A stretch of DNA of 64,000 bases from a virus (lineage: Duplodnaviria; Caudoviricetes), in the IMG/VR virus record IMGVR_UViG_3300037484_000235, positions 188,522 to 252,521 of that record; one strand, written 5' to 3'. The notes under the pieces were generated by a model. It saw only the letters and a list, made by a program, of their open reading frames with translations, searched no databases and was not told where the DNA came from. The number at the start of each line of letters is the position of its first letter. Position 1 is the stretch's first letter. Both the position numbers and the translations under genes were made by a program. Below are positions 8,081-30,455 of the stretch, in pieces.

Positions 8081-8267
8081 ACGCTTCGCCATACAGGATG
8101 AAGACTTTCGAGCCGTCTCCTAGATAGGCCCCTTCCGTCGCTTCAGCGATAAGGATGTGGTGATGTTTGGGAGGAAAAACACCCCCCGGACGTCCTTCAT
8201 GGAAGTGCACCTCAACAGATCCACCTACGCCGCGAAGAGCTTTACGGAGTTCTTTTACTGTGATCAT
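8052..8267 (-). CDS. Hypothetical protein (71 aa, MITVKELRKAL...)
   Basis: ATG at 8267 overlaps the stop of the DHH gene, so it is the last gene of a coupled - strand operon. Confidence 0.6.
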   Translation of the reverse strand: MITVKELRKALRGVGGSVEVHFHEGRPGGVFPPKHHHILIAEATEGAYLGDGSKVFILYGEASIAHRHGEV

Positions 8268-9106
8268 CAATCCCCCATGTGAAGATCCCAAGGAGGGTGT
8301 TCACTGCTGAATCCAGATGCATTCTTGTGGCCACCACCACCGAATCTCTTTGCAATTGTTGATACGTCGAAGTCTCCGTTTGAACGCATTGAGTACCTGA
8401 AGGTGCCATCACTCACCTGATTCCAGGCCACCGCAAAATAGTTCTTTGATGCCAGCTGGTTTACCAGGTCACTGATGATATTGCCACCAGCATTGACCAC
8501 AGGCACGTCGGGGTACCCTGCGAACTTGCTGAGTACGGCATTGCGTTTGTAGTTGGCGATATCGATAGCTTTACTGCGCTCTATGGCCTCACCCGCACGG
8601 ATGAGTATGTCGCGACTGTTTTCGCACGTGTTGACTAGCATTTGCCACAGCTCAAAATCCCCGTGAGCGTAGCTTGACAGCACCGCACTCACTGCATGTG
8701 AGTCTGGCAATGCCCACCGCCAGAGGTCCCTATCTTCGACATAGTTCACGAGTGTTGGACGTGGCTTTTCCGAGTGAAAATAGTCCCATGCCATACCTGC
8801 ACCACTTCGATGTTGATCGAAGTGGCAATAGTCGAGTTGGGCACAGGTCTCTTCCGCCGACTTGTGGTGATCGAGAACCACACACGACTTGGCGAGACTG
8901 GTGTAGGAGAGAAGTTCTGGTAGCTGCGGGCAATAGTCGAGGATGTAGACTTCACGCCCAGCCACGTCGAATACCTCACCTGATTGGTAGGTCGCTGGAA
9001 GGTATTCTGCGGAGTCGCCAAACTTGCGCCAGGCACACCACGCAGCGGTCCAGCCGTCGGTGCAGTTGGAGTGATAAAGGACGAGGATGCCCTTACGATC
9101 AGTCAC
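8267..9106 (-). CDS. DHH/DHHA1 family phosphoesterase (nanoRNase NrnA/NrnB-like)
   Basis: Motifs YHSNCTDG, YILDY, VVLDHH, DRDLW and the C-terminal DHHA1 signature GGGHKNASGF. Confidence 0.9.
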   Translation of the reverse strand: MTDRKGILVLYHSNCTDGWTAAWCAWRKFGDSAEYLPATYQSGEVFDVAGREVYILDYCPQLPELLSYTSLAKSCVVLDHHKSAEETCAQLDYCHFDQHRSGAGMAWDYFHSEKPRPTLVNYVEDRDLWRWALPDSHAVSAVLSSYAHGDFELWQMLVNTCENSRDILIRAGEAIERSKAIDIANYKRNAVLSKFAGYPDVPVVNAGGNIISDLVNQLASKNYFAVAWNQVSDGTFRYSMRSNGDFDVSTIAKRFGGGGHKNASGFSSEHPPWDLHMGD

Positions 9107-9740: not shown

Positions 9741-12329
9741 ATGGCGACAACAGGCGAGTGGGGTGGTCTTCAGGTTCGATTTGACATCCCGGAGATCCGA
9801 GATGCGGTCGATGCTGTCAACTCTGTCTTCGAGATCATCATCGTTGCGCTGGATATTGCCCTGAGCGTTCTGAACATCATCAAGGCGTTCGTTTCCAGCC
9901 TCCTGAATCCCGTCCGGGCAATCATCCAAGAGCTGATTTCGGCCTTGCAGAACTTGCTCTTGGATTTCAGACAGGCCGGATTCTACACCAATGGTGACTG
10001 GAATCTTCTGGGGGACACGACCCGAGAGCAACTCCGTGGGGGTTACGCCGCCTACCAGAATCGGATGCTCACCCGGCTCACGGACCGGACTGACCTCTCT
10101 CGTCCCAACTTCTCCCCTTCTACGACCGTGCTGGCACTGTTCCTCTACACAGGGGCGGACATCTCTTTCGTGGATGGGCTGACCGATTTCAGCAAGCTGA
10201 ACCAAATCAATCAGCTAGTCGAGGGTTTCGCCGGGTTCTTTGGGATTGACGTGGGCGATTCACCACTGCCTATTCCTACAGGGCTCCGGTCGAACTTCGC
10301 TGGTGGGTCGACTAGGATCACGTCGGGGGGTGTCCCTAGTTCATCAATTTCCGACTTGCGTGCCTCTGTCTCCCGGATTGCAGGTCGGACCAGTACAATC
10401 CTCCAATGGGGTCTCGCCCCAAGCCCTGGCAGCGCAAGCACCCAGCCGACCCCCGTGGTGCCACCTGACGGGTTCCTGATCGAACTCTCGGTCTTCGCCC
10501 AGGGTCTGTACGTGGGCTATCTGGCACCGGTCCCCAGCAGCACAGGAGGTGTCGCAGGCGTGCCCAGCGAGGGCAGCACTACGACGCCCGCCACGTACGC
10601 GACCGGCATGTATAAGGAAGCGGACACAGGTAGGCCCCTCCAAGTCTTTGGCGGATTGGACAGCGTGAGTCTGTCTGACGGGGTGCAATGGTCCTCAGCC
10701 TTTGATTCCAACGTGGCACTGATCCCCGGCGCCCGCCCCGCATTCTTCCTCACGGACCTGTCAAGTACCCAGCTCATTCAGACGAATGTCCTACAACCGC
10801 CGCCAGGTGCTCCTGAGGGCCGTTACTACAACCAACGCACGCTCTACGTGCCCCACTCGTCAGTCCTTGCCCAGTCGCTCGTGGGAGGCACCTACAGCTT
10901 TGAGCTGTCTTCGGCAGACTTCCCCTGGCAGACGCCCATCTCTGCGGATGGGGTGCCTGACTTCGAGGGTGCCACACAGGCGACGTCCGTGTACGTTCGA
11001 GTTCTCTCGTGCAGTGACAAGGTGTCGGCGATGAACTCATTCCGATGGAATGTGGTTCCGTTCACGACGCCCGAATCCGCCATGATCTTGCCTTGGAACG
11101 ATTTGGGCGTGGCAGACCGGAGTCAATCGAGTCAGATCATTCCCGTGACATTCCCTACAGCAGAAGCCGACGCCTATCTGGGGGCACTTCAAACGGCGCT
11201 GACTGTGATGCTTCTTTCGCGATCGGATTTGGTGCTACCTAGTGCAGCACTCAATCCGGAACTGGCTCTAGAAGTCACGGGCCAGACAAGCTACACGCCG
11301 ACTGGGTTGGAGACGTTCGCACAGAATCTCCTGCCTGTCTTGGGTGTGGACCCCCAGGACTACTTTTCAAGTGCGGCCACCCCCCAAGCATTTGGCTTGG
11401 ACCTGCGGGCTAAGGTTGGTGTCCTCACGGACTTGATTATCGAGCGCCAGGGGAATCTTCCACAGAATACCCTCCAGGCACTGGCCAACACGTTTACCAG
11501 GCTCACTGAGTGGGAGTGGGCAGACTCCACGGTGGCCGGGGCCAGTGGAAACACCAATCTTGGAGTGACTATCCTGAGCAGCTTGCTTGCGACGGGGCCC
11601 GACGACGACACGGACATGGGGATGTACGTCGCGAAGAACGCTGCGTCCCTCTTCGGGTATCCCACGGCCCCTGGGGCATCTCTGGCCAAGGTCCGGAGTA
11701 GCGGTGTGCTCAACACCTATGACCAGGCTGGATTTGGGTCTGGGATTCCAACCATGCCGGACGCTACTGAGGCAGCCCCGTTCCTCGTAGATCTAGGAGT
11801 ACCTGGACGCAATACCCCGATTCGGGCTTGGTACGCACGCGACCTCATCCCCGCAGAAATCTACACCGCAGCCCAACAGGTACTCAGCCTGGCTGTAGGT
11901 GAGTCTACGGCTGCGGGGGGCTGGATTTCGGTGCGTCCTTTCCAGTCTGTAGGAAACCTGGCAGGGATTCAAAACGTTTCGGCTATCATCCAAAACTACT
12001 TGGAAGCGATTGCAGCAGGTATTCAGGGCGGGGCCGACCTGATCTTGAATTTCATCTCCATGCTTGAACAGCGTGTCAACGAGATTCAGGAACTCATCCG
12101 GCGCATCGACACGTACTTGACTATCCCGCTCTCGATTGAGATTCCGGACGCTGTGGGGCTGGCTCTCGTAGCCAACGGTATGGATGGGGTGGTCTCCGGT
12201 CTTGTGTCGGCGACGAACAAGCCGACGGATGGCCCGGGAGCCTACGCCGGGGGCTTAGTGGTCTTGGGGGGCGGGCTCCCCGCTCTCATCACCGACCTCA
12301 TGCTCTTGCTCATCGCCCCCACACCTTGA
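9741..12329 (+). CDS. Virion structural protein, probable baseplate component (862 aa)
   Basis: Long ORF with amphipathic helical N- and C-termini around a beta-rich core; structural context. Confidence 0.6.
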   Translation: MATTGEWGGLQVRFDIPEIRDAVDAVNSVFEIIIVALDIALSVLNIIKAFVSSLLNPVRAIIQELISALQNLLLDFRQAGFYTNGDWNLLGDTTREQLRGGYAAYQNRMLTRLTDRTDLSRPNFSPSTTVLALFLYTGADISFVDGLTDFSKLNQINQLVEGFAGFFGIDVGDSPLPIPTGLRSNFAGGSTRITSGGVPSSSISDLRASVSRIAGRTSTILQWGLAPSPGSASTQPTPVVPPDGFLIELSVFAQGLYVGYLAPVPSSTGGVAGVPSEGSTTTPATYATGMYKEADTGRPLQVFGGLDSVSLSDGVQWSSAFDSNVALIPGARPAFFLTDLSSTQLIQTNVLQPPPGAPEGRYYNQRTLYVPHSSVLAQSLVGGTYSFELSSADFPWQTPISADGVPDFEGATQATSVYVRVLSCSDKVSAMNSFRWNVVPFTTPESAMILPWNDLGVADRSQSSQIIPVTFPTAEADAYLGALQTALTVMLLSRSDLVLPSAALNPELALEVTGQTSYTPTGLETFAQNLLPVLGVDPQDYFSSAATPQAFGLDLRAKVGVLTDLIIERQGNLPQNTLQALANTFTRLTEWEWADSTVAGASGNTNLGVTILSSLLATGPDDDTDMGMYVAKNAASLFGYPTAPGASLAKVRSSGVLNTYDQAGFGSGIPTMPDATEAAPFLVDLGVPGRNTPIRAWYARDLIPAEIYTAAQQVLSLAVGESTAAGGWISVRPFQSVGNLAGIQNVSAIIQNYLEAIAAGIQGGADLILNFISMLEQRVNEIQELIRRIDTYLTIPLSIEIPDAVGLALVANGMDGVVSGLVSATNKPTDGPGAYAGGLVVLGGGLPALITDLMLLLIAPTP

Positions 12330-13157: not shown

Positions 13158-14228
13158 TTATCGATTTGGATCGTAGGGTCTTCCGGATGGATCCGTGATG
13201 TAGAGGTCGTCATCCTCGGCATCTGTAATCCGGAATCCAGGATCTAACCCAAGGTCTTTTTCGACCGAAGCCTGCGTCTCAAGCATCTCCAATGCTTTGT
13301 TGATGGCGCGGGCAGCTGGAGGCATGCGGGAACCGCGCAGGGCGTACATGGACACCCTTCGGAGTAAGTTCGCGAAGGCGATGGCCTCATCCTCTGGGAA
13401 GCCAGAGTTCCGGCTTGCTACGACCAGTTCCTTGGCTGACTCAAGGATTTGGGTGGTGTAGAACGTCGTTCGCGAAGCGCGGCGTTGACCGTGAGGTGAA
13501 CTGTGTTCGTCTAGTTCACGCAGGACTTCCCAGGGTCGCTTGGGTGTCACGCGTGGATCGTGTGCGTCAAGTGCCAAGGCCGCCTTGTAGAGAAGGCTGG
13601 CAGCCCCACGATTGCCGCCGGACTTGGCGTAGGCCGCACAGGTCAAGAGTACCTGGTGGAAGGCTTCGTCAATGTCTTCCGTCGAGCTGCGGGCCCCATG
13701 GTGCGCGTCCAGAAGGTCTTGAACGTTGGCCTTGAGCAGAAGCGCCTTCGACGCCTGATTTGCCCGCTTGGCCACGGACGCCTTCTTGTCGTCCTTCTTG
13801 CCCTCTTCGACCTTCTTTTCGCAGTTGTCTCGCATCCCGCCCTCGGGAAGCTTCTCGCAACCGGCGGTCTTGTCAACATCCTTGGCCTTCTTGTCGCAAA
13901 CAGCGCAACGTCCAGAAGACACGTTTCCGAAGGCTCTCGCCTTTGAGACAGCGGACGGCTTGAACTTCTTGCCGCACAGGGCGACGTTGTTCACGACGTT
14001 GGATCCGTCCTCGAATACTGCGTTCTTGAAGGCGTGGGATTCTCCGTCACGTTGGTTGCCAGGACGCGCCCAGGCAACCTCGATTTTCTCCGGCGTCTCC
14101 CCGTGCATGACGGGTTCCCAGAATGGTGCTACCGCAGCTTCCTTGAGAAGGGGGAGCAAGTCAGCCCGGAGAGCCGGGTTCTGGTGGGCAAGGCGAATGA
14201 GGCGTGAGCGGAGGGCTTGGTCTGACAT
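13158..14228 (-). CDS. Leader-bearing modular protein (356 aa), candidate internal virion protein
   Basis: N-terminus MSDQALRSRLIRLAHQNPALRADLLPLLKEAA is shared with three other genes; SD AAGGTGG precedes the ATG; internal KTAG/KKAS/RRAS junctions. Confidence 0.75.
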   Translation of the reverse strand: MSDQALRSRLIRLAHQNPALRADLLPLLKEAAVAPFWEPVMHGETPEKIEVAWARPGNQRDGESHAFKNAVFEDGSNVVNNVALCGKKFKPSAVSKARAFGNVSSGRCAVCDKKAKDVDKTAGCEKLPEGGMRDNCEKKVEEGKKDDKKASVAKRANQASKALLLKANVQDLLDAHHGARSSTEDIDEAFHQVLLTCAAYAKSGGNRGAASLLYKAALALDAHDPRVTPKRPWEVLRELDEHSSPHGQRRASRTTFYTTQILESAKELVVASRNSGFPEDEAIAFANLLRRVSMYALRGSRMPPAARAINKALEMLETQASVEKDLGLDPGFRITDAEDDDLYITDPSGRPYDPNR

Positions 14229-14239
14229 ACCACCTTGGG

Positions 14240-14283
14240 CCTATCAAACGATTCACGGAATCGTATTTCATCGGTAGAGTCCC
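14240..14283. repeat. Intergenic elements repeated elsewhere: CCTATCAAACG (also 63567-63577); GATTCACGG and CGGTAGAGTCCC (also within 9711-9734)
   Basis: Exact 9-12-nt matches read directly from the sequence, all in divergent intergenic regions. Confidence 0.6.
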
Positions 14284-14311
14284 GGGCCAGCTACTGGCAG
14301 GAGACCCGATC

Positions 14312-14617
14312 ATGACGACAGAAAATACGACGAATGCGGATACCGAGGTCAAGGAAGTCAACAAGCTCTCCCCTGAGGAGGTTGCCCAGCTGACTCAGTT
14401 GCACCGTCAGGCGCAAGAAATTGTGCAACAGATCGGTCAGATTGAAGTCCGCAAGCACCGTATGATGGCTTCTCTCTCCGAGATTGAAGAGCATGCTCAG
14501 GGGATCATGAATGCTGCGGCCTCACGTCTGGGGATCGCTCCTGGCACCGCATGGCAAATGGCCCCGGACGGAACTGTGATCGTTCTGCCGAAGACTCCAG
14601 CAGCTCAGACGCACTAA
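14312..14617 (+). CDS. Small coiled-coil protein (101 aa), possible assembly chaperone
   Basis: SD AGGAG before ATG 14312; long amphipathic helix LTQLHRQAQEIVQQIGQIEVRKHRMMASLSEIE. Confidence 0.75.
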   Translation: MTTENTTNADTEVKEVNKLSPEEVAQLTQLHRQAQEIVQQIGQIEVRKHRMMASLSEIEEHAQGIMNAAASRLGIAPGTAWQMAPDGTVIVLPKTPAAQTH

Positions 14618-14648
14618 CCGAGCTATCATCTAGAGAAGGGGACGCATC

Positions 14649-16037
14649 ATGTGGACCCCCACAACATACCCCTTACCACCAATGAACGTCATGGTGGTCA
14701 GTCCCTTCGAGAGGGGTATGCTCGACGTGCGATGGGATGATCCCTCCCTTCTAGGGGGGAACTCACCATACAACGTCCTTGGGGTCAACGTCTACAGATC
14801 GGATTCGAGTGACAGAGGACCGTTCCGTAGGTTGAATTCCTATCCTGTGGGAGGGACGTTTTTCCGGGATTTCACGGATGTGGCCCTCGTCTCTAACGAG
14901 ATCATCTCTTGGGAGGCTGGGTGGCAATCTCGTGGGGATGCCCCAAACGTTCGACGATGGACTCTGCGGACACGGTACCCCATCTACAAGCCTCGGACTC
15001 AGGGAGTCGAGGCAAATGCACCCGCTGATGTGATCGTCACAATCAACGGCATACCCGCACGCATCCACGAGGTCTTTGGATCCTCTTGTGAGATCACACT
15101 TGGGGACGCTCCGGATATCGATCCGAGACCTGATCGCTTTGCATTTGCCCCACTTCCTACAGGAAGTGGGGATGCTGTCGTCGTCACATACTACACTCTG
15201 AAGAATCTTGTCTCCCCAGGCGTGGACAAGAAGTCGTACTACCGAGTGACAACGGTTGCAGTGGATGCCACACAGCCTGGCGGCCTTGCTGAAACTCCGA
15301 TGAACGTGTCCCAGCCAGCATCTGAGACACAGATTGAGCAGCTTGACTACATCTGGCGTGAGGCCATTAGGCGCAACCACTGGATTCTTCAACAGGGTGG
15401 GGAACGCGTTAGCCTGTTCTGTCAGAAGGTGTCTGGGGTCCCTTGCGAGTGCCGCGCAGAGATAGAGAACCACGTCCGGGTGTACTCAAAACAGCACTCA
15501 AACCGGTGCAAAATCTGTTTCGGCACTGGATTCGTTGGGGGTTTTGAAGGGCCATACAACGTCATCATGGCACCGGATGACGCTGAGAAGCGCATCTCTC
15601 AGTCACTGACTGGCCGTAGAAAGGAACACGCTTACGAGGTGTTCATGACGTTCACCCCCATTGTCTCCCAAAGGGACTTCGTGGTGAAGCAGAACAACGA
15701 TCGCTACTCGATCGGCCCTGTGCGTCGCCCCACAAATCGTGGGAACGTGATGCAGCAGCATTTCACTCTGGGGTACTTGGATTCTGGTGACATTCGGTAT
15801 TCGGTGCCGATCGATGGTTCTTTGGAGTCTCCAAATCTTCCATGGCCACAGACTCGCTACACATACAGTCCACCACGTGAGACGTATGATGCCCGTGAGG
15901 ATGCCCCGTGGCCAGTCACGCCTGATGCAGCGCTGCCAATGGCAACCGATGTGGCACTTGTTCCGGCTCCTGTCCAGCAGAGATACCGAACGGGAACTGG
16001 GGCAAACAACACTGGCAATAAGCCAAATGATCCATAG
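14649..16037 (+). CDS. Neck / head-tail connector-like structural protein (462 aa)
   Basis: N-terminal FN3-like strands (LDVRWD...GVNVYRS...FFRD), CxC...CxxC motif (CECR...CKICFGTG) and a head-closure-like C-terminal part; first gene of the neck operon. Confidence 0.65.
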   Translation: MWTPTTYPLPPMNVMVVSPFERGMLDVRWDDPSLLGGNSPYNVLGVNVYRSDSSDRGPFRRLNSYPVGGTFFRDFTDVALVSNEIISWEAGWQSRGDAPNVRRWTLRTRYPIYKPRTQGVEANAPADVIVTINGIPARIHEVFGSSCEITLGDAPDIDPRPDRFAFAPLPTGSGDAVVVTYYTLKNLVSPGVDKKSYYRVTTVAVDATQPGGLAETPMNVSQPASETQIEQLDYIWREAIRRNHWILQQGGERVSLFCQKVSGVPCECRAEIENHVRVYSKQHSNRCKICFGTGFVGGFEGPYNVIMAPDDAEKRISQSLTGRRKEHAYEVFMTFTPIVSQRDFVVKQNNDRYSIGPVRRPTNRGNVMQQHFTLGYLDSGDIRYSVPIDGSLESPNLPWPQTRYTYSPPRETYDAREDAPWPVTPDAALPMATDVALVPAPVQQRYRTGTGANNTGNKPNDP

Positions 16038-16049
16038 TAGGGGGAACAC

Positions 16050-16604
16050 ATGCCAGATGATGATGAGATCGTACCAGGTCCAATAGAGAACAGGGTAATC
16101 CGTGCCGGCAAGCTCATGGGCGCTGTTACTGGCATCCTTGTGGCTGTTGCAGCTGTGGTGTCTGGCATTTGGCAGGTAGGCAGCATGGTGAGCGATCTGA
16201 AGGACACCAAGACAGATTTGGAGTCCCTCAAGAAGTCGTTCAACGACTATCAAATTGAGGCACGAAAAGAGAACGAGATCCAGAAAGAGATTCTCGTCAA
16301 TCTCAGGATTGCTGTTGCCTCAATACAAACTGTCAATGGCTATCAGACCTCGGGCCACTCAACTATGGCCTCCATGCCTCCCATTTCGGCCTCTCGTATC
16401 CGTCAGGTTCTACCAAGAACATTGGGACCACTAGACGACAATCCTGAGTTTGCGTCTCTGATTCGGTCATTGCCCCCATTGCCCCCGGACCCCACCACAT
16501 CTGCTGTTGGCAATATGGATTCAAGTGACGTAATTCAGCATGAGTCGGATACGGCAGATGTGGCATTGCAGAGAGCTGAGATCCTTCAGGGTAGTCTCCA
16601 GTAA
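16050..16604 (+). CDS. Single-TM coiled-coil membrane protein (184 aa)
   Basis: Hydrophobic LMGAVTGILVAVAAVVSGIWQVG followed by a coiled coil; topology resembles an i-spanin or antiholin, but no partner o-spanin was found. Confidence 0.65.
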   Translation: MPDDDEIVPGPIENRVIRAGKLMGAVTGILVAVAAVVSGIWQVGSMVSDLKDTKTDLESLKKSFNDYQIEARKENEIQKEILVNLRIAVASIQTVNGYQTSGHSTMASMPPISASRIRQVLPRTLGPLDDNPEFASLIRSLPPLPPDPTTSAVGNMDSSDVIQHESDTADVALQRAEILQGSLQ

Positions 16605-17191
16605 TGGCGGGACCACCAAAGCCACCTGTCCAGTTAAAATCCTCTGTCCAGGCTACAAACAAGAAGGCTGCCACTAAGCTGCACAGCGGCCCAAAGCGAG
16701 TCATCCGGAGCCGTTACGTCTCTCCTCTGGAACGACGTGTCGGAGCCGTGCTCGACAAGTCCGATCTTCAGTTTTTCGGGCGCTGCCTCATCAAGTACAT
16801 CAAAGAGGAGGCAGCGAAGGATGCTGCGAAGACGCATCAGGTGCCTGTCACTGAGGAATTTTACAAGTCTTTCACTTACCAGGTGAAAGACAACACCATT
16901 GAGGTGTCTTCAAGTTGGCCGTGGATCGACCTGATTACCTTCGGAACAAGTGGCCCATACCCCATGAAATGGCTCACTCAAGCCAAGGGCGTCTACAAGG
17001 TGCCGTTGCGTGGTGAACATGGTGAACTGCTCATCCGCTCGACACCTCTTACGACGGACAAGGCGTGGATCCACCCTGGTATCTCTCGACATACGTTCAT
17101 CGAACGAGCGTTTCGTCGAGCGCGAGAGGATTGCGTCTCCAAGTTCCTCTCGAAGAACATTGGGAAGATCATGGGTGGGGTCCTCAAATGA
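16604..17191 (+). CDS. Neck / tail-completion protein (HK97 gp10-like, tentative)
   Basis: Basic 195-aa protein with WIHPG...TFIERAF C-terminal motif; coupled in the neck operon. Confidence 0.55.
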   Translation: MAGPPKPPVQLKSSVQATNKKAATKLHSGPKRVIRSRYVSPLERRVGAVLDKSDLQFFGRCLIKYIKEEAAKDAAKTHQVPVTEEFYKSFTYQVKDNTIEVSSSWPWIDLITFGTSGPYPMKWLTQAKGVYKVPLRGEHGELLIRSTPLTTDKAWIHPGISRHTFIERAFRRAREDCVSKFLSKNIGKIMGGVLK

Positions 17192-17820
17192 ACGAAGTCG
17201 AGTTGACTTGTGTTGGGGACACAGCCCACATCCCTGATTTAGGATTGAAGATGGTCCGAGGATCCCAGTCTTTCATCACCCTCACAGCTCTTGCCAACTC
17301 CCGCGATCTGGTTGAGGCTAGGAAATTCGGGCTTGTCACGGTGCGGGTGATCAAGGCTCAGGTAATCAAGAGGGGTTCACCCACCGTGTCAGTCAAACAC
17401 CCCAATAATCGCCAGACGATTTTTCTCCCAGCTTACCAACCGTCAACACCTGTGAATCCACCCCCCAACATTCCGGATCCACGGGACATACCCAATAACC
17501 AGATTGCCGAGTTGATCCGGGAGATTCGTGGTCTTCGGGGGGACATACAAAAACGCCCACAGGAAGTCCTGAGTGGGCAAATGGTAGGGGCCATCTCCGC
17601 AGCTATCCGAGATGCTCTACAGGGTCTCCAACTGGGTGCAATCTCTGGTTCTCAGGTGAGGGGGCCAATTGATCCTGAAGACATGTTCATTCCTAGTGGT
17701 ATCGTTACAGGAGTGAAGGCAGAGATCACAACACTGAATGAGACATCTGAGAGTACCTCTGGCCTGGACGATGCTCACAGCGCCTTGAAGAAGGCTCGAA
17801 GAGATCGCCAGGAACCATGA
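17188..17820 (+). CDS. Hypothetical protein (210 aa), candidate adaptor of the actin-like protein
   Basis: ATGA overlaps at both ends; N-terminal small domain, Pro-rich linker, short coiled coil (IAELIREIRGLRGDI), basic C-terminal helix. Confidence 0.75.
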   Translation: MNEVELTCVGDTAHIPDLGLKMVRGSQSFITLTALANSRDLVEARKFGLVTVRVIKAQVIKRGSPTVSVKHPNNRQTIFLPAYQPSTPVNPPPNIPDPRDIPNNQIAELIREIRGLRGDIQKRPQEVLSGQMVGAISAAIRDALQGLQLGAISGSQVRGPIDPEDMFIPSGIVTGVKAEITTLNETSESTSGLDDAHSALKKARRDRQEP

Positions 17821-18911
17821 CAGATATTGCCGTGACTACGCCTTTGGGCGTTGAGCAAACTGATATACTGACCCTGATGAAGGAGACGCCTGTGGCCAAG
17901 GACGAATCGACAAAGACTCAAGAATCCCGTGGTGTGGGGCTTGATTGCGGAACCATGAATCTAGTTTCTGCGCGCCGTACCCCAAAGGGAATCGAAACCC
18001 GAAGGATGCGGGACGCCTTCCTAGATCTTCCGAGCGAGTCAAAGAAGATGCTCAAGCTCTCTGGGGTGTCCTATGTGGACCGGGGAGATGAGATTCTCAT
18101 CCTCGGAGATGCAGCTCTTGACATGGCCAATGTTTTTGGCAGGGAGGCTCGTCGCCCGCTTTCCGGTGGCCTTGTCTCCGCAACGGAGTCAGATTCCCTG
18201 GAGGTGCTCGGTCTGCTTGTGCAGAACGTCCTGGGGGCACCTAAAGAGAAGGGTGAGCACTGTTACTTCTCTGTCCCGGCGGCTCCGATTGATGTGGTAG
18301 GACGGGATATTGTCTACCACAAGGGAATCTTCGACAGAATCGTGTCCGAGTGTGGGTACACACCGCACTCCGGAAACGAGGCCATGGCCGTGATCTATGC
18401 GGAGTCCGCCAAGGATGGGTTCTCTGGGGTGGCGCTATCTTTCGGGAGTGGAATGTCCAATGTGGCGCTATCGGTCGGGACGATTGAGGGACTCTCCTTT
18501 TCGGTTGGCCGTGGGGGCGACTGGATCGATTCTGGTGCGTCGAAATCTGTGGGGTCCACACAGGCTCGAATGTGTTCCACCAAGGAGAAGGGCTTTGACC
18601 TCAATATCCCGGAAAATCGGGACCAAGAGGCACTGGCCTTCTACTACAAGAACCTGATCGAGTACGTTTTGGATCAGATTGCTCTCCAGTTCAAGACGAT
18701 CGAAGGGAAGTTCTCGCTTCCCAAGCCTATTCCAATCATCGTCTCTGGGGGCACGTCACTTGCTGGAGGGTTCCTGGAGTTCTTCACGAAGGTATTTGAG
18801 AAGAAGCGCAAGAAGTTCCCTATCAATGTGAGTGAGATACGGGCTGCAAGTGACCCACTCAACGCCGTCGCACATGGCCTACTGATTCAGGCACTCCAGG
18901 AGTACGAGTGA
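17817..18911 (+). CDS. Actin-fold (ASKHA) ATPase, MreB/ParM/FtsA-like (364 aa)
   Basis: Phosphate-1 GVGLDCGT, connect-1 NEAMA, phosphate-2 variant SFGSGMSN, GRGGDWID, adenosine IIVSGGTS, connect-2 PLNAVAHG. Confidence 0.88.
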   Translation: MTDIAVTTPLGVEQTDILTLMKETPVAKDESTKTQESRGVGLDCGTMNLVSARRTPKGIETRRMRDAFLDLPSESKKMLKLSGVSYVDRGDEILILGDAALDMANVFGREARRPLSGGLVSATESDSLEVLGLLVQNVLGAPKEKGEHCYFSVPAAPIDVVGRDIVYHKGIFDRIVSECGYTPHSGNEAMAVIYAESAKDGFSGVALSFGSGMSNVALSVGTIEGLSFSVGRGGDWIDSGASKSVGSTQARMCSTKEKGFDLNIPENRDQEALAFYYKNLIEYVLDQIALQFKTIEGKFSLPKPIPIIVSGGTSLAGGFLEFFTKVFEKKRKKFPINVSEIRAASDPLNAVAHGLLIQALQEYE

Positions 18912-19720
18912 TGGTACGCGTAATGCGCGAGGTGCATATGGCAGAAAGGGCCTGTGCGGAGCTTTCAAAGGTGTGTCATCGATCCGGCGCCTCCGAACAG
19001 CCATGTTGGGGTCGAATAGAGCCACTCGCGGATCCTGATTGGAACGGTAGCAATGATGCCCTAAAGTTCGCTTGTAGGGCTCATCGGACTTCTCAGTACA
19101 AGGCAAAGTCTGGGATTGACCTGGATATGGACTACGCGGCGGCTCAGGCCTTGGGGATGGACCCCAGGATCGTGGGAGATGAGTCCCACTCCTTTGCTCC
19201 AACCTTCTCTGGCAGAGAAGAGCTTGCACGAATGCAGGGTACCATGGAGGTCCCAGAAGAAATTCAAAATGTATTTGACCTTCAAGAGGTGGTAGACGCC
19301 TCTTTAGCCCAACAGGAATGGGCCAGAAGGATGGTTGAGGGCAAAACGGGTCGGGTTGAGAACCTCTTTTATGTGCCACGCGTCAAGATATCCACAGAGG
19401 CCGTAGAAAACCTGACTGCCAAGATTCTAGAGTACTTGGCACAGATTGAAGTACTGAAGCATAGGATCAATCAGCATCGATGTGAGTTAGCTGGGTTCCC
19501 GCCAGAATTTGCTGTTGGCATGGGCGACCCTTGCCACAAGTACGAGCCTGAGCAGAACACACATCACTGTTTAGAGTCCGTCAACGGACCCGGTGACGTG
19601 ACCACTATCTGCTGGTGTGAGAGTGCCACAACACGAACCAGGCCCATTGATGTTGAAGCCTATGTGGTGACTCCCGGTAGATTCCGGGTACGCGAAACTC
19701 AGGATCAGACGAAAGACTAA
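18908..19720 (+). CDS. Hypothetical Cys/His-rich protein (270 aa)
   Basis: GTGA overlap with the actin stop; Cys/His clusters at both ends flank a coiled coil. Confidence 0.65.
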   Translation: MMVRVMREVHMAERACAELSKVCHRSGASEQPCWGRIEPLADPDWNGSNDALKFACRAHRTSQYKAKSGIDLDMDYAAAQALGMDPRIVGDESHSFAPTFSGREELARMQGTMEVPEEIQNVFDLQEVVDASLAQQEWARRMVEGKTGRVENLFYVPRVKISTEAVENLTAKILEYLAQIEVLKHRINQHRCELAGFPPEFAVGMGDPCHKYEPEQNTHHCLESVNGPGDVTTICWCESATTRTRPIDVEAYVVTPGRFRVRETQDQTKD

Positions 19721-19727
19721 TAGTTTC

Positions 19728-20849
19728 ATGTACTTCCACATGGCAGAGGCGACGCGCCGAAGACTCATCAAAGAGCTTCGAGCCTATTGGTCCTTGAACC
19801 CAAGGTACCAAGACCTCATTGACAACATCCAGGGGAAATACTCGTTCCAAGAGAGGCCCCAGTACGGGATCATTGTCAAGATGGGTTCCGCCTCAAAGGT
19901 CCAGTTCTCCGCTGACAATCTCATGGGGACGATTCAGAGTTACGTGACATTGGCTAGGATTCCAGGGTACTCGGGACTGTCTGTTGAGTGGGTTAGGGAG
20001 GATGCCTATGCCATCCAGGGCAATGGTGGGGTCTTCCCGTCGCAAGCTGGCGTCTATTACTGTGAAATGTCCTCTGCGGATGAATTCTACGTAGACCCAT
20101 TGCTCGACGTACGTGATGAGCGGGTCACGATGACTACCAATTCAGAGGGCATCCTTCAAGGTGTCCCATTCTCCGAAAGCTTGCGTCTCTTTGAGGTGCC
20201 TGGCGGCCGACTCCTTCAGCTCGGTACAGACTACTCAGTGGATGCAGACGGTGTTACAATCTACTTGGCAGTGCCGCTGGCCAATGGGCAGGCCCTCTCA
20301 GCGGACTACCGTGTAGCAGGGACAACGACTGGGCCATGGAAGGTAGAGGCACAGGCGGGGCTTCACAAGATCATCCCCGGAGTCGTGATGGTCTTTGGGC
20401 GGAACTATGTACAAGGTGATCGTTGGGCTATTCTCGTTTCTTCGATTCGGGAGCCTGCATACATGGAGTACGGCGGGAAGTGGGAGATTGGTGTAGACAT
20501 CGACATCATAGCTAGGGACGTTAATTCCCAGGCAGAGATTGCAGATCAGACGGCGATGTTCCTGTGGGCCATCTTGCGACCGAACGTCATCGATGAGGGG
20601 ATTGATATCCAGGATGTGTCCATGGGCGGGGAGTCTGAAGAAATATACGACGAGAACGGGGACGACTACTTCTACAATGCGTCAATTTCCCTAACAATTC
20701 AGGCGGATTGGTTCCTTCATGTTCCGATCCTACCGAGAATTCTATCCTACCAGGAGGATATCAAGGGGCTTCCGAGGGAGCTGTCGCTCTCTCCGTTCAG
20801 AGACCCATTCTTCGCATTGAAGTCGGAACACTTCGAAAAGATCTTGTGA
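19728..20849 (+). CDS. Tail terminator / tail-completion-like protein (373 aa)
   Basis: Lies between neck and sheath genes; C-terminal IDIIARD...AEIADQ...IQDVSMGGESE...SISLTIQADW pattern fits tail-completion folds. Confidence 0.6.
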   Translation: MYFHMAEATRRRLIKELRAYWSLNPRYQDLIDNIQGKYSFQERPQYGIIVKMGSASKVQFSADNLMGTIQSYVTLARIPGYSGLSVEWVREDAYAIQGNGGVFPSQAGVYYCEMSSADEFYVDPLLDVRDERVTMTTNSEGILQGVPFSESLRLFEVPGGRLLQLGTDYSVDADGVTIYLAVPLANGQALSADYRVAGTTTGPWKVEAQAGLHKIIPGVVMVFGRNYVQGDRWAILVSSIREPAYMEYGGKWEIGVDIDIIARDVNSQAEIADQTAMFLWAILRPNVIDEGIDIQDVSMGGESEEIYDENGDDYFYNASISLTIQADWFLHVPILPRILSYQEDIKGLPRELSLSPFRDPFFALKSEHFEKIL

Positions 20850-20894
20850 TCCGTTGGCCCCTCTATACCTATCCCTTGTTGAAGAGAGGCCACC

Positions 20895-21371
20895 ATTCCT
20901 GTTTTCAGATACCAGTGCGACTGCGGATTGAACTTCTCGACTCGTGTCGCTTCGGCAGCGAGTCCGGTGAAGTGCTCCTGCGGGTCATTGGCGAAACAAG
21001 ATCTCCCCCGATCTTTTTCGGTGGGCACGTCTGTTCCTACGAATGGACTCTCTGCCCCATCAACAGGCCTATCGTCACATGACTATGTGTTTGACAAGGT
21101 TGTGGGAGAAGATGCCAAGGGCAAGTGGGACAAGATTGCGGCCCGCCACAAGGACAAGGTTCGGCTTCTTGAGCAGACTGGGGCCACAGGATTCGATCTC
21201 ACCAAGCAGCATGACGGTTCCTACGCCATCATGACCCCCCAGCAGCGGGCTGCCTCTGAACGGACACGGGCATTCCACTTCAAGATGGATGCTGCGGGTC
21301 CGGCTCAAGCCCGAAAGAAGCAGATTGAGGCAACAAGTTTGGTCCCTAAGGATCACAAAAGCCATGTCTGA
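20895..21371 (+). CDS. FmdB-like zinc-ribbon protein (158 aa), probable ATT start
   Basis: In-frame extension upstream of the track start gives (M)PVFRYQCDCGLNF...CSCG, the FmdB-type N-terminus. An in-frame TGA lies at 20880 and no ATG/GTG/TTG occurs before 20928. Confidence 0.75.
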   Translation: MPVFRYQCDCGLNFSTRVASAASPVKCSCGSLAKQDLPRSFSVGTSVPTNGLSAPSTGLSSHDYVFDKVVGEDAKGKWDKIAARHKDKVRLLEQTGATGFDLTKQHDGSYAIMTPQQRAASERTRAFHFKMDAAGPAQARKKQIEATSLVPKDHKSHV

Positions 21372-22053
21372 ACTTCGAAGTAAGCTCATTCGTTTGGCCA
21401 ACTCTAACCCAGAGTTGCGATCCACATTGCTACCTTTGCTGAAGGAGGGCGCCGCCGAGAAGACCGGGTCCTCTGTCACCTATGCGATGGCTGTGAGGGA
21501 CGCTTCTCTGGAGTTGATTGGAGCGTCAAGAGGAAGTGATGTTACAGACGAGGGGCAGATGCTCATTCTGCTTCTTGCTGCATGCTCCACATTCGTCAAG
21601 AAGGGCAGGATTGGAAGCAATCAGACCGCTATCCTCATCAAAAGGGCAGCCGACTCGTTGTACAAGGAGATGTTCGGGGAGAGTCCTGATGCGGTGTCAC
21701 CAGTTGTTGCCGCTCCGACCCCCAGGGATCTGTTCTTTGGTTCGGGCAAGCTAAGTGGGTATGCCCTAGAAGTCATCCGTGGGATGCAGATGTTGGATGG
21801 TGACATCCACACCAAAGGCAAAGTAAATCCCAATGGCTCGGTGGAGTTCATGCATGGTGGTGTCTACGGCACAGTTCTGGTTGAGATGGGATTGTCCAAT
21901 GATGCCCGTGCGTGGGTATCTGTGTACACGACTGGGCGTCGGCCCGCTTCCATCATGTTTCCCTCAACCTTCGATGTGAAGAGCGTGGCTGGGTCAAAGT
22001 TTCCCAGGATGCTCCTGAACAAGCTCTCTGACCTGAGTGCTTGGGCTGAGTAA
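21364..22053 (+). CDS. Leader-bearing modular protein (229 aa), candidate internal virion protein
   Basis: True start is likely ATG 21364: MSELRSKLIRLANSNPELRSTLLPLLKEGAA. Confidence 0.75.
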   Translation: MSELRSKLIRLANSNPELRSTLLPLLKEGAAEKTGSSVTYAMAVRDASLELIGASRGSDVTDEGQMLILLLAACSTFVKKGRIGSNQTAILIKRAADSLYKEMFGESPDAVSPVVAAPTPRDLFFGSGKLSGYALEVIRGMQMLDGDIHTKGKVNPNGSVEFMHGGVYGTVLVEMGLSNDARAWVSVYTTGRRPASIMFPSTFDVKSVAGSKFPRMLLNKLSDLSAWAE

Positions 22054-22141: not shown

Positions 22142-22178
22142 GTTGATTCACATCAGTTCTCTCAGGAGCGCGCGAACC

Positions 22179-25100
22179 ATGCCAAGTCTTCTCCGTGGCG
22201 GATACACTCCCCCAGGTGTTTACACCCAGACCACTTTCGGAGTCCCACCGACCCCGACTCCGATTCCAGCTCGTATTCCCGTGTTCGTCGGGACGGGCAC
22301 TGAGATCCTCTCTCGGTCGAGTCTCCCTGTCGTGCGTGGCAGTTCCAGCACCATTGACCAACAGGTCGTGGACGAGGATGAGGCTGGTCGTGGCGTAGTT
22401 AGCGTCACCTCAGGTGGCCTTGTCACTCTTGGGGACTTCGATGGCCTGCTCACGAAGTTCCAGGTCCGCAACCTTCCCATCGTCTCTGGCGATGGGACTG
22501 GCACCGTTGCGGTCGATACCAGCGCAGTCTCGTGCAAGATCAACGGATTCCCCGTTGTGGTTCTTGGACTTGACGCAGCCGAGGGCATCGTCGAGCTGTC
22601 GGTAGCACCAGTGTCTACGGACGTGGTCCTCTGCACTTACTTCTTCGACCGCACAGACACTCTGACGACGGATGACGTGTCGGATCAGGTCACTGCTGAG
22701 GCGGCGATCATCGATGGCCTTGCGGGACAGAGCTTCGCGTTCGCACTTGCCGCGAACGACGTTTTCTCCCTCTCGGTAGATGGATTGGCGTTCGTGAACA
22801 TCACGATGCCCTCGTCCGCCCCATCGGTGAGCGGCGCAGTGGTAGCAGCAACCATCAACGGCACCGCAGGAATTGGCTCTCTCGTCGCCACGACCTACGT
22901 CAACAACCTTGCTCAGACTTGCATCCGGCTTACGGCCGACAAGTCCATCACCATTGGAACGGGCACGGCGAATACAACCCTTGGGTTCACGCCTGGTGCA
23001 ACGACCTCTCGCAATCGTGTGTTCTACACGTTCCAGGGTCCGATCGTCGATGGTTTCGGCGGCGGTACCACAACGACGGACCCTTCGTTGGTTGTTGTCC
23101 TTGTGGACAGCGTCCAGGTCATCCCAACAGCGGTCAATGGGTCGTCCCGGTCGATCACCTTGCCCTACGCTCCGGCAGTGGGCTCTACGGTTACGGTCCG
23201 CTACTACTTTAACACCTGGCAGGACACGTTCGATTACCTTGCCAACATCGGTGTGACGGAGATCACACGCGCAGCCCTCACCCCTGACGGAAGCGTTGCG
23301 GGCACATACGTCCAGGGTGTGTCATACGTTCTCAAGGACGACGTGATCGTGTGGGGCACAGCGGCCCTCGTTTCCTCTGACGTGCATACAGAGGGTGGGA
23401 CGACTCTAGGCACCTCGCAAATCCAAGCGATGTTGGTAGACAACCAGGTCTACCTTGCCCCCTGCGCAACGACCGTGGACAGCACAGGCCCAGTCTCGGT
23501 TGCAAGTCGTACGGTCTTCCAGCTTCCATACCAGCCCACGACGGGTAATGGACGGGGTAATCCCCTGGGTTCGACGCTGTACGCGTCTGTCGCCAACGGG
23601 CGGATGGATCTCCCAACGAATCGCCCCGACCTCATCACAGCCTACTGGGGCTTCGGCGTTCAGGATGCAGTGGATCGTGGCGCGGTTGCGGTCCTCAAGG
23701 TGGACAGCGAGACTTCGCAGATCACACTCGGTTCGAGTGTGCCTGAAGGTGCAAGCGTCTACGCCTCGTTCTACTACAACACGCTTGTGGACATGGCGAA
23801 CATCGGTTCGAGCCACGCATACACACTAACGTGTGTGACGCCTGGACCTGGCGGAATCGGAACGTATTCCATCGCTGATGGTGAGGGAGTCCTGCTTTTC
23901 GGGGCGAGCCTTACAGCCAAGGGAAGCGACCTCACGACCGTAGACGTGATGTTCCCTTCGGGCTCCGAGTTCTTCCCAGACGCGCATGTCTCGGGCGGGG
24001 CGCCTGTCGAGGAGACTGTCACAGTCCAGTTCGCTACGTCGGACGTGACACCTGCTCGGTTCACGAACCTCGGACCTGGCCCGTACTACATGATCGACAA
24101 CACCTCGGATCGTCTCCGGGTGACGTTCGATGCGGCGGCACAGCAGACGGGTCTTGCGGCTGGTATGGACCTCTCCGCCCCAACGCTGGGCACACGCGCC
24201 GGTGCATTCGCCTCTCTTCTGGGTGAAGAGATTGCGTACACAGCGGCCTCCGGTGAAACCACCTACGACCTCACCTCCGGTGTGGATGATGCCCTCGATC
24301 TCATCGTAGACGGTGTGCCCCTGACCGTAGCAGTCGGTACTGCCCCAGGTACAACGGCTGCGGGCTTTGTTACGGCCATCAACGCAGCGGCCGTCGCTGC
24401 GGGCAATGAGCCCTACTACGACACCGCGGGTACGTTCACGAGCTTCATTGTCACGGTGAACGAGTACGACCAGCTTCGTCTTCACTACACGGGTGGCACC
24501 AACGGTGCGTCCGGTGTTGAGACGATCACCATCACCCCTGGTACCTACGCATCTCTCGGTGCGCTTGTTACCGAGATCAATGCGCAGCTTGCGCTGATCA
24601 ACGGTCTGTCCAGCACCGCTCTGTTCGGTTGGGTGACGGCTTCGGCTCTCTCTTCCGGCAAGATCCGATTCACTCTCGAAATCGGAAAGGGTATGGATAC
24701 CCTGACCTTCGGTGGTATCCCAATCGCGGGTGAGACTGTTACGATCAATGCCAAGATCTATACGTTCCGAGCGGTCATCAACGGAGCATCTGTAGACGGT
24801 GATGTCCTCATCGGAACGGCGAGCGGTTCGCTCGACAACCTGATTGCAGCCATCAATCTCGGTGCAGGCTCAGGCGTCACCTACGCAGCGGCAATGACTC
24901 TTCACCCCACGGTGTCTGCGGTTGCGGGCGCAGGCGTCACGATGATCGCATACGCCAAGGCAGTTGGAACTGCGGGCAACGCAATCACCGATGCAACCAA
25001 CGTTACACTTGGTGCATGGACGAACGCAGCTCCCGCTGGATTCTTTGCGGGTGGCGATGACACGGGTTACCTGGAGTTCATCGCAAACGCCACACCAGCT

Positions 25101-29168: not shown

Positions 29169-30455
29169 CTATGGCGTCAGACCCAATGTGTTGAGTCTAT
29201 CTTGGAGGAAGTTCAGATCTTCCCATGGATCGTTGTAGTGGACTACCAGGTACAAATACACCCCTACGGTGAGACGCTCTTTGAGCTTGTCTCTTTCCTG
29301 TAGGGCCCTGAACTGGTTCAGGTTCTTGATGTGGGTGGACGGAAATACCGTATGTTGCCAACCTTGGAACTCAGCTAGGAGGTTGTGATCTGGGAAGTAC
29401 CCATCATATCTTAGGCGCCCACCTGTCTTTGGATTGAGGAACCCAGGTGGGTTCCACTCCTGTTCGTAGGCGAGTCCACCGAGTGCCCGAGATACGGCGT
29501 CCAAGAATAGTTCCTGGGAGATGGCCCGATGCGCTATAGGCAGACCTAGTTGGATACAGATCTTTTGAAGTGTTGTGTGGCAGTGCCCGAGACCAGTTAC
29601 GGCCTTGCAGATTGCTACCTTCCCATTCTTCAATCTGTAGGGATCGAAATCTTCTGGTCGAAGAGTGAATTTCTTGTAGTCCGATCGGGTGAGGGAATAT
29701 TTCCGTGTGCATCGGAGCCCCAGCTCTTGGATGTTTCTCTTCATGGGCATGATCCCAACCCCTAGCCCCTTTACGGCAGAGTGGTGATCTACCGTCCCAT
29801 CAGACTCGATGTAGGGGGTCAAATCCTTGAGCGTAAGCCTGATGATTTGAGATTCAGCATACACCTGGAATTTCTTCTTCCAGATCTCGGTTTTAGGCTT
29901 ACCCTTGGATTGTGCTGAGAGTTTGCTTCGGAAGGATTTTGCTGTGATTGAAGCCCCTGGATACTTGTCCCGATACTTCTTGGAGAGTTCTGGGTGTGAT
30001 CTCTGGATGTGGGATGCTAGCGACTCGGACTTGTGTCCGCACTCCAGGCACGTTACATAATCATGGAGTTCTGATTTCCCATCCCACTTTTCTTTCAGAG
30101 CTTTCTGAATCTCCTCACCTTTACACTTGAGGCATTTTGTAAATGGGGATGTGCGATACGGTACCTCATTTGATTCCCCACAGTTGGGACAATTAGCCAA
30201 CCTCTTTCCTACCTTTCGGTGACTCTTCCCTCGTCTCGATGCGCCCCTTTTTTCCTTGGATACTGAACCGAAGACAAGCGCTCCAGCCCCATACAACTCT
30301 CGATACCTGACAGCTGGGGTGTTGTGTTCCTTAACAAGGTGTCGCGTAAGGGAGACGGCTTTTTTCCCACAGATCCTGCACCTCACGTAATCAACACCCT
30401 CAACCAATCCATTGAATTGGTCTGAACGGTCGATCTCGGACTCTTTTTTGCCCAT
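29169..30455 (-). mobile_element. Free-standing homing endonuclease gene, PD-(D/E)xK/Vsr-like nuclease with repeated zinc fingers (428 aa)
   Basis: Two CxxC..H..H fingers (YVRCRICG...HLVKEH; YVTCLECG...HIQRSH), a CPNC...CLKC ribbon, and a C-terminal RLRYDGYFPDHNLLAEFQGWQH nuclease motif. It is antisense, Lys-rich and visibly lower in GC. Confidence 0.75.

Follow-up and report, generated by a model that had tools for sequence, protein, structure and literature searches.

A predicted volactin-family actin-like ATPase and its candidate adaptor between neck-like and tail-terminator genes of huge phages

Known phage cytoskeletons are the PhuZ tubulin of nucleus-forming jumbo phages and a few actins of the ParM/AlpC type that move DNA. 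The PhuZ spindle of the nucleus-forming phages (Chimalliviridae) positions structures and delivers capsids (PMC7950403, PMC13282480), and prophage CGP3 encodes the actin-like ATPase AlpC together with its adaptor AlpA (PMC4446434, PMC5539076). A further actin, volactin (VolA, HVO_2015, D4GU28, PF25216), forms dynamic filaments in vivo, as shown for VolA of Haloferax volcanii only (PMC10869688). We analysed a 64-kb stretch of phage DNA (called the window below, meaning the whole 64,000 nucleotides) that makes up the terminal part of the 252.5-kb IMG/VR record IMGVR_UViG_3300037484_000235 (CheckV completeness 57%), and describe here an actin-like gene of the volactin family and the gene directly upstream of it, termed the partner. 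Our best explanation, which we consider evenly poised, is that the two genes form a cytoskeletal cassette that is fixed in the neck-to-terminator block of a huge-phage clade and is used for late-stage organisation. The two genes, with lengths in amino acids (aa), and the most conserved part of the partner are as follows.

17817 to 18911, + strand: predicted Volactin-family actin-like ATPase (P0001, 364 aa), from Pfam, an AlphaFold2 (AF2) model and fold comparison
17188 to 17820, + strand: partner and candidate adaptor (210 aa), from alignment, a motif test and co-folding
17686 to 17817, + strand: C-terminal module of the partner (FIPS motif through basic tail), putative actin-docking segment

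The window actin belongs to the Volactin family, an assignment that we regard as practically certain. The Volactin profile (PF25216) matched residues 40-359 over profile positions 3-321 of 321, with E = 2.6e-67 and 228 bits against a cut-off of 35, and no other actin family, MreB_Mbl (PF06723) included, was found in the Pfam scan at E <=0.1. An earlier note on this DNA had described a 364-aa open reading frame (ORF) with all five actin-fold motifs, and all five were found when the protein was placed on an alignment of 70 representatives of the family, which was also used for the AF2 model. Four of the motifs are listed here with the number of those representatives that carry each residue.

17937 to 17954, + strand: phosphate-1, G41-L-D43-C-G45-T46 (D43 in 67, G45 in 69, T46 in 67 of 70)
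18375 to 18392, + strand: connect-1, N187-E188-A-M-A-V (E188 in 69 of 70)
18435 to 18461, + strand: phosphate-2, L-S208-F-G210-S-G212-M-S-N215 (S208 in 68, G212 in 70, N215 in 68 of 70)
18744 to 18773, + strand: adenosine motif, S310-G-G-T-S-L-A-G-G-F319 (G311 in 70, G312 in 68, F319 in 66 of 70)

The connect-2 motif reads D346-P-L-N-A-V-A-H-G354, and the usual G-G-D235-W-I-D238 motif lies 3' of phosphate-2. Judging from motif order, E188 would occupy the position of the catalytic Glu of MreB and ParM. The catalytic-core residues D43, E188, G210/G212, D235/D238 and G311-G312 were retained across the family representatives, and the Volactin signatures G[LIV]D[IV]GT, NEAxA, SFGxGMxN, GGDWID, SGGTSxxxGF and DPLxAVAxG were all present in the window protein. 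It had been noted earlier that phosphate-2 (SFGSGMSN) lacks the canonical Asp. This is correct, with Ser at that column, but the substitution is not peculiar to the window protein, since Ser was found in 68 of the 70 representatives and Asp in only two; Ser in phosphate-2 is a hallmark of the Volactin family and no defect.

The AF2 model of the actin had a mean predicted local distance difference test (pLDDT) score of 91.8 and a predicted template modelling (pTM) score of 0.89, with residues 1-38 disordered and residues 39-364 forming a bare four-subdomain core without any added domain. When the model was compared with the AlphaFold models of Swiss-Prot, the top match was H. volcanii volactin (D4GU28; E = 1.7e-36, template modelling (TM) scores 0.85/0.89), and superposition of these two predicted structures aligned 329 residues at a root-mean-square deviation (rmsd) of 1.7 Å and 35% identity. 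MreBH, salactin, MamK and MreB followed at E ~1e-14. The solved structures that matched were the MamK filament (Z 28.7, rmsd 3.0, 295 residues aligned), the BeeR filament (Z 27.5), MreB (Z 26.1), F-actin (Z 25.4), crenactin (Z 25.0), FtsA (Z 24.9) and the nucleotide-binding domain of DnaK (Z 24.6). The likeness to MamK, BeeR and MreB lies in the four-subdomain core and extends over 282-302 residues, whereas identity is 14-19% and phosphate-2 of the window protein reads SFGxGM instead of DxGGGT. Searched with phmmer at E up to 1, the PDB sequences yielded no relative, MreB, MamK and BeeR included, so that kinship to MreB and MamK is seen by fold comparison only. Clustering with sugar kinases or Hsp70 had been named in the earlier note as a reason to give up its proposal; no sugar kinase appeared in the best 50 rows of either structure search, and MamK, BeeR and MreB ranked above Hsp70. 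Together, these comparisons support a place among the filament-forming actins of the superfamily, nearest to volactin and next nearest to MamK, BeeR and MreB. By analogy with VolA, the phage actin probably forms filaments. It shares with VolA the family, the fold and the motif set including the phosphate-2 Ser, but VolA is encoded on an archaeal chromosome and the phage gene in the morphogenesis block of a huge bacteriophage; the phage actin also has a dedicated upstream partner with a FIPS/basic-tail module, and the cell-shape function of VolA is not transferable to it.

The start of the actin gene requires a caveat. Most homologues have ~335 aa and begin near residue 21-38 of the ORF, and because the homologues are shorter and the first 38 residues are disordered, M21 (ATG 17877) is a possible alternative start. 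The sequence AGGA occurs a few bases 5' of ATG 17817, and no Shine-Dalgarno-like sequence was seen at ATG 17877.

The partner is composed of an N-terminal domain of ~60 residues, a Pro-rich linker, a short helix, an invariant F167-I168-P169 and a basic tail (A199-L-K-K-A-R-R) that reads ALKKARRDRQEP and takes the form AL[KR]xA[RK][KR][KR] in the alignment. It had been described as a coiled-coil/basic-tail protein; the basic tail is there, together with a conserved short helix, but the coiled coil is only modest. Of the whole protein, the C-terminal module alone is conserved in every lineage, including the related loci L026, L031 and L019. A motif test was defined as aromatic-[IV]-P-[STNRE] within the last 75 residues together with at least three Lys/Arg in the last 14, and was applied to ORFs on the + strand ending no more than 900 nucleotides (nt) 5' of the actin domain in 30 phage loci, with the 1865 other ORFs of the same loci as background. 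The motif was present upstream of the actin in 27 of the 30 loci, compared to five of the 1865 other ORFs (0.27%). The exceptions were L020, where the locus is truncated at the actin, L028, and L005, in which the upstream ORF has 76 aa and ends ...WAIPEF...KVKFGKKA. The pair was retained even in L026, where the actin is 41% identical to that of the window and the other neighbours differ.

Co-folding of the actin with the partner gave an interaction prediction score from aligned errors (ipSAE) of 0.54 in three runs, compared to 0.00 in three controls; at least 60% of the contacts agreed between runs, and the pLDDT of the partner was at least 57. Among 80 solved complexes 58 had reached the mark applied here, and among 110 mismatched pairs two. 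We lean slightly towards binding of the partner to the actin. The earlier proposal that the product of 17188 is the adaptor stands as regards a dedicated partner, found in 27 of 30 loci, but co-folding passes its controls only weakly. The arrangement resembles ParMRC and AlpAC in that a mobile element carries an actin-like ATPase and an adjacent small partner thought to couple filaments to cargo, and an adjacent gene for the candidate adaptor, a trait of type II partition systems, was present in the same 27 loci. It differs in that the window actin comes from another family and has no ParM or Alp match in Pfam, in that the partner lies upstream and lacks a recognisable DNA-binding fold (no DNA-binding family was detected in it with Pfam, PHROG or NCBIfam), and in that the cassette stands in a late structural context and not a replication context. 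No centromere-like or iteron repeats of the kind expected beside a partition adaptor were found within 14000-21500, the interval searched.

The cassette is embedded in a block of seven genes on the same strand, from 14649 to 20849, with overlaps or gaps of at most 12 nt throughout. The remaining members of the block are listed below.

14649 to 16037, + strand: conserved 462-aa protein, first gene of the block, probably a neck or head-completion component (a structure lead)
16050 to 16604, + strand: 184-aa protein without a family match, variably present (five loci, 33-35% identity)
16604 to 17191, + strand: conserved 195-aa protein, in nearly all related loci (28-73% identity)
18908 to 19720, + strand: Cys/His-rich accessory protein of 270 aa, with nine Cys and nine His in two clusters
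19728 to 20849, + strand: tail terminator (tail-completion hexamer fold) of 373 aa with an inserted beta domain, from an AF2 model (pLDDT 78) and a fold match

The ATGA/GTGA overlaps reported earlier were read in the sequence at ATG 17188, which overlaps the TGA of 16604-17191, at ATG 17817, which overlaps the TGA of 17188-17820, and at GTG 18908, which overlaps the TGA of the actin gene. The ORF at 18908 has ATG (18911) as its second codon, and its start may lie there, one codon later.

Gene order was common to 22 loci of IMG/VR, three of other assemblies and LR745208.1, and ran 462-aa protein, (184-aa protein), 195-aa protein, partner, actin, (a variable slot), terminator, Zn-ribbon protein and a ~1770-aa protein. 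It was kept down to an actin identity of 50-53% (L021-L023). Loss of synteny in relatives had been raised as an objection to the earlier proposal; the order neck-like gene, actin, terminator is conserved across related huge phages. The slot between actin and terminator is empty or holds small ORFs, a GIY-YIG endonuclease (L003/L004) or a Cys/His protein of 150-270 aa. In two distant lineages the surroundings are different: in L026:7655-10975 the partner-actin cassette stands beside a NUDIX hydrolase and a glycosyltransferase of family 9 (GT9) and not beside neck genes, and in L005:10790-13056 its neighbours are PKD-domain proteins, a GT9-like protein and a primase. Because these neighbours differ, the conserved unit is the two-gene cassette, and the position in the neck block is specific to the clade.

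The actin was the best conserved protein of the block in every pair of loci, with 66-86% identity between phages compared to 43-83% for the neck-like protein, 44-79% for the terminator and 23-45% for the fast-evolving partner. Between the window and L017, for example, identity was 70% for the actin, 49% for the neck-like protein, 44% for the terminator, 28% for the 195-aa protein, 27% for the partner and 26% for the Zn-ribbon protein. A word-index search of public data gave at least 1800 matches to the actin, mostly at ~70% identity and on contigs of up to 473 kb. An exhaustive search placed 1069 clusters (50% identity level) in the family at E <=1e-3 and 323 at E <=1e-30, and relatives in GenBank huge phages were found in LR745208.1 (485 kb, 69% identity) and LR756511.1 (595 kb, 31% identity). 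Volactin is a slowly evolving and apparently core gene of a large uncultured clade of huge phages.

Several forms of ~700 aa in the family are the same actin split by an intein with an HNH endonuclease, directly after phosphate-2 (e.g. P0124). In L024:9983-12196 the junctions read ...SFGSGMTN / CLSGDT...VFVHN / CALAV..., with an intein of ~400 aa, and similar forms are P0124, P0126, P0128 and P0132. To our knowledge, no intein has been reported in an actin homologue. The top conservation of the actin and the presence of inteins in its active-site loop suggest an indispensable protein with many constrained surfaces, as in a polymer. Other family members are fused or duplicated: P0166 to a polysaccharide co-polymerase kinase of the Wzz/GNVR/ParA type, P0156 to an N-terminal HTH_ParB domain, and P0129 as a tandem double volactin.

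The nearest cellular relatives of the actin, at 42-45% identity, come almost all from Planctomycetota, Brocadiaceae and Omnitrophota. The Volactin profile scored above its cut-off in 76 of 201 sampled Planctomycetota genomes, and five volactin-bearing planctomycete genomes also contained true MreB. Some planctomycete loci (L032-L107; e.g. L037:6001-6993 and L039:2292-3086) have a second volactin paralogue, and planctomycete volactins are nearly identical across classes (tree branch lengths 0.003-0.05). In 28 loci the gene before the planctomycete volactin, in most of them 18-57 nt away, encodes a protein of 250-310 aa comprising a small domain at the N-terminus, a coiled coil, the motif P-x-D-F-G-G-[ML]-F and a tail ...NLAKLKKLKGGG (basic, LKKLKGGG). 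The planctomycete and omnitrophote systems thus resemble that of the window in that the actin is preceded by a partner whose small N-terminal domain is followed by a coiled coil, an aromatic motif and a basic tail, but the partners are not demonstrably homologous, the phage actins form their own clade, and the cellular genes lie away from virion genes. We regard the planctomycete partner as an analogue of the phage partner and do not claim homology; the planctomycete system of volactin and coiled-coil partner appears to be uncharacterised.

Trees were rooted on planctomycete MreBs, which stood on a very long separate branch. The window actin fell inside a clade of phage loci in the Shimodaira-Hasegawa-like approximate likelihood-ratio test (7 rows, SH-aLRT 97; 13 rows, SH-aLRT 88), and the planctomycete and omnitrophote volactins formed a separate clade (SH-aLRT 94-97), with deep nodes not resolved. 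Since the phage actins lie outside the planctomycete clade, they do not reflect recent gene capture from that phylum.

If the cassette works as we propose, it would be co-transcribed late, together with the virion genes. The actin would assemble in the infected cell, using ATP, into dynamic filaments like those of Haloferax volactin, and the C-terminal module of the partner (aromatic-[IV]-P-[ST], ~30 residues, basic AL[KR]xx[KR][KR] tail) would dock on it, leaving the variable N-terminal domain to couple the filament to a cargo or site. The likeliest use of such filaments would be to organise late infection in space, by positioning or joining very large heads, tails or the assembly zone. The earlier note had proposed an actin-based cytomotive or scaffolding system for virion assembly or capsid trafficking. 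An actin of the filament branch in a conserved late block agrees with it, but an assembly or trafficking role cannot be assigned from gene position, because in distant lineages the cassette lies beside NUDIX and GT9 genes. We think a specific role in virion assembly or trafficking plausible but fairly unlikely. Its strongest form is a clade-wide assembly machinery in which the N-terminus of the partner would sit on the neck, portal or tail end and the growing filament would align or transport heads and tails, each of at least 100 nm, to let them meet and join in a crowded cell; we hold this to be doubtful. If true, it would parallel the tubulin spindle of PhuZ with actin, as the first cytoskeleton devoted to joining heads and tails.

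Several observations weigh against the proposed cassette. Polymerisation and ATP hydrolysis are predicted for the phage actin from its 35% identity to volactin, and a Ser replaces the phosphate-2 Asp of other actins. The margin of the best filament formers over Hsp70 domains (Z 24.6) is only ~4 Z units, and because this is modest, fold alone is no proof of polymerisation. The co-folding score of actin and partner lies in the weak band, scores of 0.60 or less having been given by only seven of the 80 solved complexes and by both mismatched pairs that passed, and no interface was returned. When the phage and planctomycete partner families were compared using hhalign, the probability was 1.6%, with a match of 30 N-terminal columns at E = 0.032. 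A promoter/terminator scan gave no operon-defining signal above chance level. Finally, the cassette may be tied to virion assembly by position alone, given its surroundings in L026 and L005.

The main rival is take-over of the host, in which the filament and its partner would remodel host shape, envelope synthesis or division late in infection, for example to enlarge or stabilise the cell for large virions; the place in the neck operon would then reflect late timing only. Volactin is a cell-shape factor in Haloferax (PMC10869688), the family member fused to the polysaccharide co-polymerase kinase (P0166) is cellular, GT9 heptosyltransferase-like genes adjoin the cassette in two distant phage lineages, and chromosomal homologues are common in Planctomycetota (the 76 of 201 genomes) alongside true MreB. 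However, within the clade the cassette has kept its place between the neck-like gene and the terminator even where actin identity falls to 50%, and no envelope-related gene lies nearby in the window; on balance we judge a take-over of this kind unlikely.

The other roles considered are less likely than host take-over. A gene between neck-like and terminator genes could encode a non-polymerising actin-fold ATPase that serves as an assembly chaperone or nucleotide-driven clamp for neck and tail joining, similar to Hsp70, EutJ or PilM, and the partner would then be its co-chaperone or its substrate. The structural matches include the Hsp70 nucleotide-binding domain and EutJ (Foldseek E = 8e-13), and phosphate-2 lacks the usual Asp. 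This role is nevertheless improbable: the closest relative by far is the filament-forming volactin, the best solved matches are filament states of MamK and BeeR, the bare core contains no substrate-binding domain, and conservation this extreme is what polymers with many interfaces typically show. More improbable still is DNA positioning of the ParMRC or AlpAC type, with the partner as the component that binds phage DNA and the actin as the motor that shifts or segregates genomes during replication or packaging. The lack of a detectable DNA-binding domain in the partner, the lack of an iteron or centromere-like repeat array within 14000-21500 and the location in the late structural block instead of a replication block argue against it, in spite of the precedent of AlpC and AlpA in prophage CGP3 and the HTH_ParB domain at the N-terminus of some family members (P0156). 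That actin and partner are virion components, for example collar- or whisker-like decorations or injected proteins, would suit the location among structural genes and the fibrous, low-complexity middle region of the partner. This we consider very remote, as no actin-fold protein occurs among the neck and tail structures that match the terminator and the actin has kept a complete nucleotide-binding site.

The proposed cytoskeletal cassette resembles PhuZ as a phage-encoded cytoskeletal polymer of very large phages, although the filament is here predicted from genes, the fold is that of actin and not tubulin, and no evidence of a phage nucleus was seen; no tubulin was found in the record, which is 57% complete. 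Volactin-family actins in phages were not mentioned in the literature searched, the coverage of which was incomplete, and the two jumbo-phage reviews and the 2020 huge-phage survey that were searched do not mention actin homologues. A mobile-element actin with an adaptor is a known arrangement; what appears to be new here is the actin family (volactin, characterised so far only in a haloarchaeon), the type of partner, the late structural context among head-tail joining genes and the apparent status as a core gene in a huge-phage clade. Phage, planctomycete and archaeal actins are linked in one family by Volactin. If filaments do form, the cassette would provide a directly testable system for the organisation of very large virions in bacterial cells.

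Of the two flanks given for the actin in the earlier note, neck and tail terminator, the latter is confirmed by its fold, whereas the neck gene is plausible as a structure lead. Comparison of the terminator model using VIA-align gave phage 812 neck chain M (Z 14.6), the T5 terminator p142 (Z 13.1), the terminator-level protein of a gene transfer agent (GTA; Z 12.6), lambda gpU (Z 11.8), a pyocin collar (Z 11.1), the Mu terminator (Z 10.9) and T4 gp15 (Z 9.2). The first 33 rows were all neck, terminator or collar chains (Z 14.6-9.0) and stood above unrelated rows, and Foldseek matched 8q01_M at E = 4e-8. The terminator is unusually large, with the inserted beta domain at ~residues 70-243 and 38 disordered residues at the C-terminus, and the core of the inserted domain (126-195) resembles small decoration domains of portal and tailspike proteins and of FlgL. 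A profile search of PDB sequences with the terminator family was empty, and the SP10_terminator profile had no match in the record.

Homologues of the 462-aa protein occupy the same position in at least 16 related loci. Residues 232-379 of its Atlas model resemble Phage_HCP, Phage_attach and Minor_capsid_1, with TM scores of 0.71-0.79 normalised by the match, so that the neck identity is a lead only. Pfam, PHROG and PDB-sequence profile searches with this family were empty, as were member-by-member Pfam scans. The 195-aa protein had no Pfam or PDB match, and a weak YTV match in two of its 17 members is probably due to chance.

The downstream protein is Cys/His-rich in composition, as described earlier, but does not belong to the conserved cassette: over its N-terminal ~70 aa it is 39% identical to 150-aa proteins of L006-L008, and it is absent from all other loci. 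Because it is confined to the window and three near-identical contigs (L006-L008), with only a 70-residue N-terminal Cys/His motif in common, it is an accessory gene of the closest relatives and not the partner. Pfam, PHROGs and NCBIfam gave nothing for the genes at 14649, 16050, 16604, 17188, 18908 and 19728, or for the 1787-aa gene (22143-27506) that follows the Zn-ribbon gene. The product of the latter is 56-80% identical in relatives and had been called a tail sheath in the earlier note; the Phage_sheath_1 profile had no match in the record, this gene included. Pfam and PHROG matches were few across the window proteins in general, and no tRNA genes were found in the window. Among the sequencing runs, no RNA run was listed and all DNA shares were <0.2, and nothing is drawn from them on expression or habitat.

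Planctomycetota as host was considered and dropped, the YTV match being weak and the phage actins lying outside the planctomycete clade. 'Ca. Uab amorphum' has an actin-like protein of the lokiactin type, which is irrelevant to the volactin question. Phage contigs with the module (among L028, L029, L030, L031 and L036) had been binned into metagenome-assembled genomes (MAGs) labelled uncultured bacterium, Actinomycetota, Legionellales and Altiarchaeales, and a Luminiphilus-labelled contig in the same set has a planctomycete-type gene. The MAG labels on module-bearing phage contigs probably reflect mis-binning and are unusable for host prediction.

A few further genes were seen. An 862-aa protein is encoded upstream of the block at 9741-12329, with weak VWA matches in its relatives. 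On the strand opposite to the structural genes lie a DHH/DHHA1 phosphoesterase gene (8267-9106, - strand) and a gene for a 428-aa protein with a ROS/MucR zinc-finger regulator domain (29169-30455, - strand; E = 8e-12). Genes resembling GIY-YIG/NUMOD3 homing endonucleases are present at 31438-32199 of the window and at L003:12528-13166.

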